From Saprospiraceae bacterium (GTDB lineage: Bacteria; Bacteroidota; Bacteroidia; Chitinophagales; Saprospiraceae): a DNA stretch of 11,140 nucleotides. The notes below the pieces were generated by a model, which saw nothing but the letters and a program-made list of their open reading frames with translations, was not told the origin of the DNA and ran no database searches. Of this stretch, positions 4,401 to 7,163 are shown in pieces (the stretch's first letter is position 1; each line of letters starts with the position of its first letter). The translations under genes and the position numbers were made by a program. The stretch spans positions 1 through 11,140 of the forward strand of contig JAKVCT010000162.1 of the NCBI GenBank assembly GCA_022448995.1. The letters are read 5' to 3'.

Positions 4401-7163
4401 CTAACGGATTAGCTTAAATCCTGCCCAATAGTAAGGTTTATAACGTTTACGCATTTCTTTCTGTGCCAACTCAAAGGCCTTGGTAACAGACTTGTACTTC
4501 ATATACTTTTTATAAAATAATTGCATCAAAATAGCTGTTTCCTCATCAGGCACTTTCCATAAACTTACAATCATTTGTTGTACACCAGCTGATTTGAAAG
4601 CACGCTGTAGACCATCAACCCCTTCACTATTTGTCAAATCACCTAAACCTGTTTCACAGGCAGATAAAATTACGAGACGTGTTTTCAGTAGATCTAAATT
4701 TGCTATTTCATAGCCTGTCAAGATTCCATCACCTTTGGTTTTGACAATTGGATTAGTTGAATTCCAAGTCTTATTAGCTCCATTCAACGCTAGACCTACA
4801 CGCAATAAGGGACTTATTGGACTGTGAATTAAGCTGTCTGGAGCTGCCAAAAAATAACCATGTGTAGCAATATGCAAAATCTGAGGTGCATCATAACTAC
4901 TGTGTTTTTTTAAGGTATATTCATAAGCATCTTTACCTGTATATAAATAGGTTTTCCAATCTTTTTCTTTGCTCAACAACTTATTTGCTCCTAATAATTC
5001 TGTTTTTGTTCCTTCTAAAATATCAAAATAAAGACCTGTTTTTGGAAAGAAATAAGAAGGTACACGAATATCATCATACATAGACGGAGTCCTATCCATA
5101 ACCATAGTATCACTCATCGTTGTATCAACCTTATCATTAAAATCAGCTCCACCAATTAGGACAATTTTTTGTGTATCAAGTACAAGTCCTTCATTGGGAT
5201 CCAAATACTCTCTAAGTGAACTATGGTAGATAATTCCATATTTATCCATAAGTAGTTCTTTTCCATCTTTCTTGGTCTGTAGACTTGCAAATGAGATCTG
5301 ATGTAATAAACCACTTGGTGAGATATGCACTTTCTCTATATTCGCCATAGACAAATAAGGTTCTAGCGGTTCCCAAATTTTTTGATATAGATCATGACTC
5401 ATGACAGGATCTGTAACATAATTTAGAGTTTGTATCTTGATTCTTGAATCTAGCAAATACTCTAGTGCTTTCTGATTAGTTAGCTGTACCAAAACGGGTA
5501 AGTGATATCCAGAATAAGTAATCAAAGCACAATATTGAATAGTATCGGTAAAATCTCTTCCATTGTGTTTCCTAAAATGCATAAAATCAATAACAGCCTC
5601 ATTATTATCAAGCTGCAACCGTAAGGAGTCTACATCTAAAATCTTATCCTGTGTATCAAATAAGTGATTGAGCTGAAAAGAATAAGTGCTTAATTCTTGC
5701 TCTAAAGTATGTACCTTAGCAGTTAACTCCTCTGCATTGAGTCCCATCATTCTCTGCTGCATCTCAGGCAGTAAATTAGCTTGATTAAGTTGTCTACGGA
5801 GTCCTAACCACTGATAATATTTCATGGTAATACTAGTATCCTGACTAGCTAAAACACTCATCTTTTTACTCACAGAACTTTCTAGAGCTAATCCTTTGAG
5901 CGTAAGATTTAGGTTGGCCATTTCACGCACTAAAGCAGGATTTTTTCGAGTAAATGGAATGGCTGTAGAATGAAACTGATGTGCAATTTCATTGATATTA
6001 TCTAAGAATTGGTACCGTTGTATTTCATCCAAGGATGGGTAATAACTGTATAACTGATAAAGAAGCTGTTGAACTAGCTTTAGCAAAAAAATTCTAGCTT
6101 GCTCTTGGTCATTTGTAATCCTATAAAAATTGAGTAAATTCTGTAAAGTTTGAGCTCTTTGAGGATGATTCCTTGTATAATTGTCATCTAAGTGTTTCTG
6201 TGCCTGAAGAAAATAAGTTTCTGCTTTTTGGGGATCTCTATCAATGTATAATTTCCCTAACTTTCCTAATGTTTCTGTATAAACAGGATGCTGTTTTTGA
6301 TATACCCCTTCCAGTAACTTTAGATTCCTTTCATAATAAACAGATGCCTTTTCTATCTTACCTTGTTGTGCATATAAATCTCCTAGATTATTGACTAGTT
6401 GAGGATATTCTTTATGGGTTAAGTCTCCTTTTTGCTCTATTTTTTGTTGTACACTCAGAAGAGTCCGTTCTGCGGCTGTGGTATCTCCCTTTTGTAAGTA
6501 AAAATAGGCTTGGTCCTCCCATTGTGAGTTAGTATTCTGTTCTAAAAGACGTTGTGTAGCACGCAATTCTAAGGCTAAGGCAGCACATCTTTCCTGTCCT
6601 AATAACTCGGTATCTGCTCTGCTAACATTCTCTGTATCTACATTGGCCAAACAATACGCGAGACGTTGTGATTGAGCAACTAAATCCACAGAAAGGGTAA
6701 ATATAGACATTGCCTTGATGCTCTTGGATTCAGGTGGAACAATTCGAACTTGGCGGATTTGCACCTTGGAAAACCACTCTAGCTCTGCATTGGTAAGTGT
6801 TAGAATATTCTCATATTGATCCCCTTTCTTGAATCTATTCTGATTGAATCGGAAGGTACGTTGTCCCCCTCTAGTAGATAAGAAAGCAACCTGATTGCCC
6901 TCTCTAACCAATAGGCGGTTTTTAGAAGGAGCCTCAATCAATATAAAGTATTGATTATTGGATTTTTTCCAAGATAACTTTAATCCTTGTCCCCCTACAT
7001 TAGATATGTTTAAAGCAATTGTTTGGCGTTCCCCCTCATTATCTGTCTGAAGATCAATAAAAGACCCGGAACAGTTGGTATTATCATGTAATTGAGGTTG
7101 TGCTTGCGCAGTAGAAAAAATAAATATCAGGGGAATAATTAGGTACAAAATTTTCATCTGCAT
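4401..7163 (-). CDS. Secreted TPR-repeat / CHAT-domain (caspase-like) peptidase, 920 aa
   Basis: N-terminal signal peptide MQMKILYLIIPLIFIFSTAQA. The central region has TPR_10/12-like repeats (LVNNLGDLYAQQGKIEKASVYYERNLKLLEGVYQKQHPVYTETLGKLGKLY...). The C-terminal ~300 aa has the CHAT hallmark His (LHIATHGYFL) and Cys (LVILSACETGLGD) motifs, plus the typical CHAT C-terminal tail (...RYKPYYWAGFKLIR). ATG at 7163 (the alternative ATG at 7157 gives MKILYL...); stop TAG at 4401-4403. Confidence 0.85.
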   Translation of the reverse strand: MQMKILYLIIPLIFIFSTAQAQPQLHDNTNCSGSFIDLQTDNEGERQTIALNISNVGGQGLKLSWKKSNNQYFILIEAPSKNRLLVREGNQVAFLSTRGGQRTFRFNQNRFKKGDQYENILTLTNAELEWFSKVQIRQVRIVPPESKSIKAMSIFTLSVDLVAQSQRLAYCLANVDTENVSRADTELLGQERCAALALELRATQRLLEQNTNSQWEDQAYFYLQKGDTTAAERTLLSVQQKIEQKGDLTHKEYPQLVNNLGDLYAQQGKIEKASVYYERNLKLLEGVYQKQHPVYTETLGKLGKLYIDRDPQKAETYFLQAQKHLDDNYTRNHPQRAQTLQNLLNFYRITNDQEQARIFLLKLVQQLLYQLYSYYPSLDEIQRYQFLDNINEIAHQFHSTAIPFTRKNPALVREMANLNLTLKGLALESSVSKKMSVLASQDTSITMKYYQWLGLRRQLNQANLLPEMQQRMMGLNAEELTAKVHTLEQELSTYSFQLNHLFDTQDKILDVDSLRLQLDNNEAVIDFMHFRKHNGRDFTDTIQYCALITYSGYHLPVLVQLTNQKALEYLLDSRIKIQTLNYVTDPVMSHDLYQKIWEPLEPYLSMANIEKVHISPSGLLHQISFASLQTKKDGKELLMDKYGIIYHSSLREYLDPNEGLVLDTQKIVLIGGADFNDKVDTTMSDTMVMDRTPSMYDDIRVPSYFFPKTGLYFDILEGTKTELLGANKLLSKEKDWKTYLYTGKDAYEYTLKKHSSYDAPQILHIATHGYFLAAPDSLIHSPISPLLRVGLALNGANKTWNSTNPIVKTKGDGILTGYEIANLDLLKTRLVILSACETGLGDLTNSEGVDGLQRAFKSAGVQQMIVSLWKVPDEETAILMQLFYKKYMKYKSVTKAFELAQKEMRKRYKPYYWAGFKLIR

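Follow-up and report, generated by a model that had tools for sequence, protein, structure and literature searches.

DdvA, an anti-sigma factor of Myxococcus, is the only exported protein studied so far that joins a tetratricopeptide repeat (TPR) solenoid to a CHAT protease domain, and its protease activity is still just a proposal. The periplasmic TPR-CHAT structure of DdvA (~900 residues) has been solved with a canonical dyad in the resting state, the catalytic cysteine being Cys907, and signal-induced autoproteolysis was proposed as the site-1 step of regulated intramembrane proteolysis (PMC11506125). Csx29, the TPR-CHAT protein of the type III-E craspase (PDB 7y83, 7y9x, 8eey, 7zoq), is cytoplasmic, binds Cas7-11/gRAMP, and cleaves Csx30. 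Separase (clan CD, C50) is a eukaryotic, cytoplasmic or nuclear, and much larger protease controlled by securin and phosphorylation, and the gingipains RgpB and Kgp of Bacteroidota (clan CD, C25) act as broad virulence or nutritional proteases at the cell surface. In craspase Csx29, in separase and, as proposed, in DdvA, the TPR solenoid keeps the His-Cys dyad at rest. Here, we describe a TPR-CHAT gene on an 11,140-bp stretch of DNA (referred to as the window), which is the entire contig JAKVCT010000162.1 of a metagenome-assembled genome (MAG) of Saprospiraceae (Bacteroidota). The gene very probably encodes a TPR-CHAT protein that is exported and whose catalytic site is intact, with a front domain found in only one other sequence.

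Profile searches recovered the predicted TPR-CHAT architecture. Pfam CHAT (PF12770, clan CD) matched aa 590-919 with an E value of 6.3e-54 and 183.8 bits against a cut-off of 24, covering profile positions 5-287 of 289 and placing the C-terminus in the CHAT family, and TPR_12 together with other Pfam TPR models matched aa ~219-358; among PDB sequences, the solenoid matched kinesin-light-chain TPRs. An AlphaFold2 model built on 36 homologues reached a mean pLDDT (per-residue confidence) of 76 and was confident for residues 213-920. In this model, the solenoid helices span aa 188-501, mostly with pLDDT 85-97, and strands 522-563 with helices 564-606 join the solenoid to the α/β core of the CHAT domain. 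This connector gave no credible Pfam family at E ≤ 10, and it also aligns in other TPR-CHAT homologues. Over aa 590-920, the model shows a caspase-like α/β fold with pLDDT mostly above 85.

The catalytic dyad is intact. His768 (THG) and Cys836 (SACETG) were found where the original prediction had placed them, and both are invariant in the alignment of 36 full-length homologues (A1) as well as in a 20-sequence CHAT-only alignment (A4), so that none of the 36 relatives has lost the dyad. By comparing the predicted model with the PDB using Foldseek, we found the type III-E craspase TPR-CHAT/Csx29 first (E=3e-14), followed by DdvA (8rw5/8rot, E=2e-9) and separase (~1e-8); the modeled fold also matches SAVED-CHAT and gingipains, but the closest matches are craspase, separase, and DdvA, not gingipains. 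Structure prediction is thus consistent with the caspase fold that had been expected. At the sequence level, a profile built from the CHAT domain alone reached DdvA in the PDB at an E value of only 0.77, with Cys836 aligned to DdvA Cys907, while the profile from the full-length alignment was swamped by TPR proteins. Because the DdvA match is just E=0.77, membership in the CHAT family is based on Pfam and on the fold, not on likeness to solved sequences. Many Bacteroidota proteins share 35-44% identity with the CHAT domain, and a CHAT-only homology search returned more than 1142 relatives at E<1e-10; where a source is named, it is mostly Bacteroidota, and several of these proteins come from Saprospiraceae MAGs. 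The search gave mostly truncated gene calls and did not refine the share of exported relatives.

The closest orthologue, and the sole close one, is a metagenomic protein with 82% identity (P0002; contig L001, Logan run SRR30130251). Against it, the ratio of nonsynonymous to synonymous substitution rates (dN/dS) is ~0.06 for the whole gene, with synonymous sites near saturation, and ~0.06 for the CHAT domain.

The N-terminus supports the predicted Sec-type signal peptide. The sequence MQMKILYLIIPLIFIFSTAQA is followed by QPQ, and all the features of Sec and signal peptidase I substrates in Bacteroidota are present by motif: a basic n-region (Lys4), a hydrophobic core within the 7- to 15-residue range (the 13-residue ILYLIIPLIFIFS), small residues at -3 and -1 (A-Q-A at -3 to -1), and Gln at +1. 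The most hydrophobic 15-mer of the whole protein lies in this signal peptide (Kyte-Doolittle 2.46). Gln at +1 is the "Q-rule" of Bacteroidetes signal peptidase I substrates (PMC5837995). The orthologue keeps the same layout, MKILYLIFPLLLISSIAKA followed by QRN, with the cut site AKA/QRN. A lipobox for signal peptidase II is absent, the first Cys being residue 31 (DNTNC), ten residues beyond the A-x-A site. No C-terminal domain of the type IX secretion system (T9SS; Por_Secre_tail or CHU_C) was matched by Pfam, and the CHAT profile reaches the last residue; the same kind of scan readily picks up Por_Secre_tail and CHU_C in the neighbor proteins of an Aureispira locus described below. In the diderm Bacteroidota cell, the periplasm is the default destination of an exported protein that carries no other sorting signal. 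Because neither a lipobox nor a T9SS C-terminal domain is present, the mature protein of ~899 aa most likely stays in the periplasm. Of the two locations that had been suggested, the periplasm is therefore retained and the cell exterior appears unlikely.

Export itself does not set the protein apart. A heuristic count in a biased sample gave a signal-like hydrophobic start for about 22 of the 36 full-length TPR-CHAT homologues, including the nearest nonorthologous ones (P0003, P0004, and P0005), so that, as far as these starts can be read, export is ordinary for the family. Moreover, a periplasmic TPR-CHAT is already documented, since DdvA is described as such and its structure is solved (PMC11506125). 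The signal peptide is accordingly not a distinctive trait.

The distinctive part lies between the signal peptide and the solenoid. Other proteins annotated as CHAT domain-containing (tetratricopeptide repeat) proteins in Bacteroidota, Cyanobacteria, and further phyla have the same Pfam architecture, linker, and dyad motifs but lack the ~190-aa N-terminal region, which is confined to the protein described here and its 82% orthologue; among ~15 billion sequences, these two are the only ones that contain it. The region gave no Pfam family even at E ≤ 10 and no PDB sequence match, and an exhaustive phmmer search against 1.84 billion representatives returned its own cluster and one artefact, with no real relative, in line with its earlier description as uncharacterized. 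The artefact, a 5830-aa metagenomic adhesin-like protein (P0040, E=8e-18), was rejected as a relative because its score sums over 24 repeats of at most 10.4 bits each. P0040 itself consists of ~24 near-identical repeats of ~150 aa. Judged by sequence comparison, a lineage-specific orphan N-terminal domain is the sole distinctive feature of this TPR-CHAT protein.

For this region, the predicted structure has seven or eight strands (aa ~50-142) and then two long helices (aa 150-209). In the model, the helices probably run on into the TPR solenoid. Hence, of the proposal that aa ~22-215 form one ~200-aa module, the absence of a family was borne out, while the module itself seems to divide into a β-rich part and two helices that are probably continuous with the solenoid. 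The region is 73% identical to that of the orthologue, and Cys31, Cys171, and Cys193 are conserved between the two proteins. Against the orthologue, dN/dS is 0.09 over aa 22-147 (β-rich) and 0.25 over aa 148-212 (helical); the orphan region is under purifying selection.

According to the above-described analysis, we favor the reading of a soluble, Sec-exported periplasmic TPR-CHAT cysteine protease that is latent and specific, to which we assign a probability of about 0.55. Sec would carry the protein across the inner membrane, and signal peptidase I would cut between Ala21 and Gln22. By analogy with the characterized relatives, the mature protein in the periplasm would be a latent, highly specific endopeptidase and not a bulk protease; the TPR solenoid would hold the His768-Cys836 dyad in a resting state, and the orphan N-terminal domain may contribute. 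Once a protein ligand or substrate is bound, the dyad would become aligned, and the protease would make a single, regulatory cut in a protein of the periplasm or in one anchored in the inner membrane. We infer the periplasmic location, latency, catalytic activity, and nature of the substrate from the features above; proteolysis of a specific envelope target through the TPR and N-terminal modules, as the original prediction proposed, would be a reasonable expectation on the same analogy.

Several observations weigh against this reading. Proteolysis has been demonstrated for no periplasmic TPR-CHAT, and for DdvA it is a proposal (PMC11506125). Cleavage between Ala21 and Gln22 is suggested by motifs only. 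With pLDDT below 50 in residues 1-212, the role of the N-terminal domain is a guess. Furthermore, a candidate substrate or partner is not evident in the window; the only conserved neighbor is DUF2400, in whose first 60 residues no signal peptide can be seen. The contexts of six distant exported TPR-CHAT homologues differ from one another, with no common partner or substrate candidate: these genes lie near a pair of WG-repeat proteins, near small open reading frames (ORFs) and a trypsin-like protease, near a TPR-histidine kinase and a LuxR regulator, near YidC, near a conflict-type cluster of MoxR, VMAP-C, and FGE-sulfatase, or near a Ser/Thr kinase. A co-occurring substrate gene, which the original prediction suggested looking for, was not found around these six.

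Among the alternatives, we first consider a periplasmic sentinel of a defense or conflict system, which, on detecting a protein of a phage or competitor in the envelope, would set off a signaling or suicide cascade. This overlaps the favored reading, both describing a latent, ligand-gated protease. It has precedents in DdvA, as proposed, and in the CHAT effectors of CBASS, type III CRISPR, gasdermin, and VMAP systems, and the strong match of the modeled fold to DdvA, craspase, and SAVED-CHAT effectors speaks for it. So does one distant homologue (P0007), which lies beside MoxR-AAA, VMAP-C, and FGE-sulfatase genes, the combination that makes up the "ternary conflict systems" (PMC10907252). Because of these neighbors, some members of the TPR-CHAT family can be placed in conflict-system contexts, though not the gene in the window. 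In the cyanobacterial MAG that carries it (GCA_039027715.1; L092), the P0007 gene at 6001..9405 adjoins genes for FGE-sulfatase (CLec-type), MoxR-like AAA, and VMAP-C at 1..5534.

The window itself gives the sentinel no such surroundings. The 11-kb window contains no cas, csx30/31, rpoE, extracytoplasmic function (ECF) sigma, anti-sigma, CD-NTase, gasdermin, or STAND NTPase genes; PADLOC families matched neither the TPR-CHAT protein nor the five neighbors scanned; and no window ORF gave a sigma-70_r2/r4 or anti-sigma Pfam match. The statement that this is not a Cas-associated context accordingly holds. The neighbors are of the housekeeping type (MqnC, DUF2400, a methyltransferase, DinB_2, and a Na/Ca exchanger), and a scan of viral contigs found no relatives of the protein. 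The two best-matching systems also differ from this protein. Csx29 shares the TPR and CHAT architecture, but identity is just 11-16%, and the protein described here has an export signal and an extra N-terminal domain; Csx29 is encoded with gRAMP/Cas7-11, csx30, csx31, and rpoE, none of which occurs in the window. DdvA is linked through a transmembrane helix to a cytoplasmic zinc anti-sigma domain, whereas the protein here has a putative cleavable signal peptide and an unrelated N-terminal domain. A DdvA-type front end is absent, with just the 21 residues of the signal peptide preceding the exported part, and the DdvA gene adjoins its ECF sigma gene and a CBASS/CRISPR island, while no sigma or defense genes are near this one. 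We therefore regard a sentinel role as unlikely.

A second alternative is that the protein is a noncatalytic scaffold, i.e., a pseudoprotease, or that it is tethered to the membrane through an uncleaved signal anchor. Mutating the dyad of DdvA produced no phenotype in the conditions that were tried, and catalysis has been shown for no periplasmic TPR-CHAT (PMC11506125); in addition, signal peptide cleavage is deduced here from motifs. However, strict conservation of the dyad and its flanking motifs together with the low CHAT-domain dN/dS is not expected of a dead enzyme, and the 13-residue core is too short for a typical transmembrane helix and is followed by an A-x-A/Q site that the orthologue conserves. 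Both versions seem quite unlikely to us.

The favored reading can also be pushed further: the orphan β-rich domain would be a new ligand- or substrate-recognition module that gates a soluble periplasmic caspase-like protease, a free-standing "site-1" signaling protease of the Bacteroidota envelope. We look on this as a long shot. In its boldest version, this protease could be tied to the Saprospiraceae locus of the vault protein homologue (MVP), an exported TPR-CHAT lying within 2 kb in both of the two informative loci.

Saprospiraceae are protein degraders, and some are predatory, which brings up a gingipain-like protease, secreted or surface-exposed, that would degrade protein during feeding or predation. 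Besides a prodomain and Ig-like domains, gingipains have a T9SS C-terminal domain, whereas the protein described here has no such C-terminal domain, no lipobox, and a large TPR solenoid. A large TPR solenoid joined to a CHAT domain typifies regulated proteases that are specific for their substrates (craspase, separase, and DdvA) and not bulk proteases, and the closest fold matches are these three and not gingipains. A degradative role is thus very unlikely. Separase differs from this protein in its eukaryotic setting, size, and mode of control.

The gene had also been singled out as lying beside the vault gene, but this closeness looks coincidental. MqnC, on the other strand, sits between the CHAT and MVP genes, with the CHAT stop 1.7 kb from the MVP start. 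Because of a strong hairpin at 4156-4208, a likely terminator, the CHAT transcript should not continue toward MVP, and because the MVP homologue has no signal peptide, the two proteins should be in different compartments. On the contig of the orthologue (L001), the upstream DUF2400 is conserved, while downstream lies a same-strand membrane-protein gene, not MqnC or MVP. In metagenomes, the MVP homologue is widespread, with 503 confirmed relatives in tblastn and identities of 44-71% for the best 80 of them. We scanned ~750 kb of flanks with the CHAT profile at 84 MVP loci, comprising the window, 3 genome loci, and 80 metagenome loci. A CHAT ORF was present in 2 of the 84, namely the window and a contig of an Aureispira MAG (L004); the other 82 had none. 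Clustering of the ORFs around the 84 loci gave mainly antisense shadow ORFs of MVP and no widely shared neighbor family. Bacterial MVP homologues have been described before (bioRxiv 10.1101/872010; PMC3762200), and the terms CHAT, caspase, and protease are not found in the former.

The CHAT proteins of the window and L004 are distant paralogues, with 26% identity limited to the CHAT domain. The L004 protein has 1053 aa, a signal-like start (…MVG/QYD), and a C-terminal transmembrane helix, and it lacks the orphan domain; its gene is convergent to MVP behind two small genes, so that the orientation relative to MVP differs from that in the window. Both MVP loci of Saprospiraceae whose flanks are usable thus have an exported TPR-CHAT gene within ~1.5-2 kb of MVP, a weak coincidence without explanation. 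Because CHAT paralogues are numerous in Saprospiraceae MAGs, such proximity by chance is plausible. In spite of this proximity, a coupling to MVP, for example by processing or regulating a bacterial vault-like particle, is highly improbable, given that the two loci carry paralogues of different architecture and orientation, the opposite-strand MqnC and terminator between the genes, the lack of an MVP signal peptide, and the 82 loci and the orthologue contig where the pairing is missing. The link implied by the original prediction is not supported, and those who study the MVP homologue of this window should not count the CHAT gene in a vault module.

Two further observations were made at these loci. 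On the Aureispira sp. contig (JAAEPD010000521.1, 8874..15962), an MVP homologue with 70% identity stands before a 204-aa ORF, DUF6794, and the TPR-CHAT gene, all three on the opposite strand; beyond these lie a PorP/SprF gene and a gene for a CHU_C T9SS cargo protein. At a metagenome MVP locus (L014), an MqnC homologue (8746..9825, 56% identical to that of the window) directly adjoins the MVP homologue (10001..12460); MqnC thus adjoins MVP in 2 of the 84 loci, which may reflect lineage synteny or chance.

Part of this picture was already known: the CHAT annotation is in NCBI (the protein is 100% identical to the entry "CHAT domain-containing protein [Saprospiraceae bacterium]"), exported TPR-CHATs are widespread, and one periplasmic structure is solved. 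Among Bacteroidota and Cyanobacteria, TPR-CHAT proteins destined for export are very common, and a substrate is known for none of them. The gene adds one member with a lineage-specific front domain and alone opens no new question; it would matter if it, or a better-sampled relative, revealed the target cut by a soluble periplasmic caspase-like protease.

Table 1. Coordinates of the TPR-CHAT gene, its parts, and the other features of the window
Feature	Position	Strand	Description
TPR-CHAT gene	4401..7163	-	920 codons plus stop at 4401-4403, ATG start; from the ORF list and translation
Signal peptide, aa 1-21 (MQMKILYLIIPLIFIFSTAQA)	7101..7163	-	Predicted signal peptidase I cut after Ala21, exposing Gln22
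Orphan N-terminal region, aa 22-211	6531..7100	-	β-rich at aa ~50-142, helices 150-173 and 188-209 (predicted)
TPR-like α-solenoid, aa 212-505 (~14 helices)	5649..6530	-	Pfam TPR_12, TPR_8, TPR_1, and others
β-sheet and helix connector, aa 506-589	5397..5648	-	AlphaFold2 strands 522-533, 538-550, and 557-563, helix 564-581, pLDDT mostly >85
CHAT (caspase-hemoglobinase fold) domain, aa 590-920	4404..5396	-	Reaches the C-terminus
Catalytic His768 codon (HIATHG)	4860..4862	-	H-x-x-x-H-G motif
Catalytic Cys836 codon (LSACETG)	4656..4658	-	S-A-C-x-[ST]-G motif
MVP homologue	147..2669	-	Pfam MVP_shoulder and Vault_3
MqnC radical-SAM enzyme	2934..4079	+	TIGR03699
Hairpin with A and T runs on both flanks	4156..4208	.	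Lies in the spacer of the convergent CHAT and MqnC genes (stops at 4401 and 4079)
DUF2400/TIGR02757	7328..8110	-	
Small ORF	8284..8796	-	170 codons
Methyltransferase	8750..9685	-	
DinB_2	9851..10420	-	
Na/Ca exchanger fragment	10440..11117	-	

The reading frame of the TPR-CHAT gene in Table 1 probably begins slightly too early. Met3 (nt 7157) is probably the conserved start, for a protein of 918 aa: this is the length of the NCBI model, and the orthologue also starts there, with different in-frame residues ahead of this Met. Upstream of the gene, a sigma-70 promoter scan stayed at background level, and the Bacteroidetes TAnnTTTG motif was not found. The hairpin in the convergent spacer is likely a bidirectional intrinsic terminator: its minus-strand RNA has a folding energy of -24.1 kcal/mol (z = -6.95), a value that no sequence among 200 shuffles reached. 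A simple terminator scan passed over it, since its loop and inner stem are above the limits of that scan.

Two genes upstream of the TPR-CHAT gene, the small ORF probably starts at Met12 (nt 8763), which takes away most of its overlap with the methyltransferase gene. Its sole family match is a weak one to NCBIfam Riean_0653 (E=0.0045). From Met12, the sequence MNYLSLFFVLLLLISC followed by NKK reads as a lipoprotein signal with a lipobox, and the product would be a small exported lipoprotein of ~159 aa.

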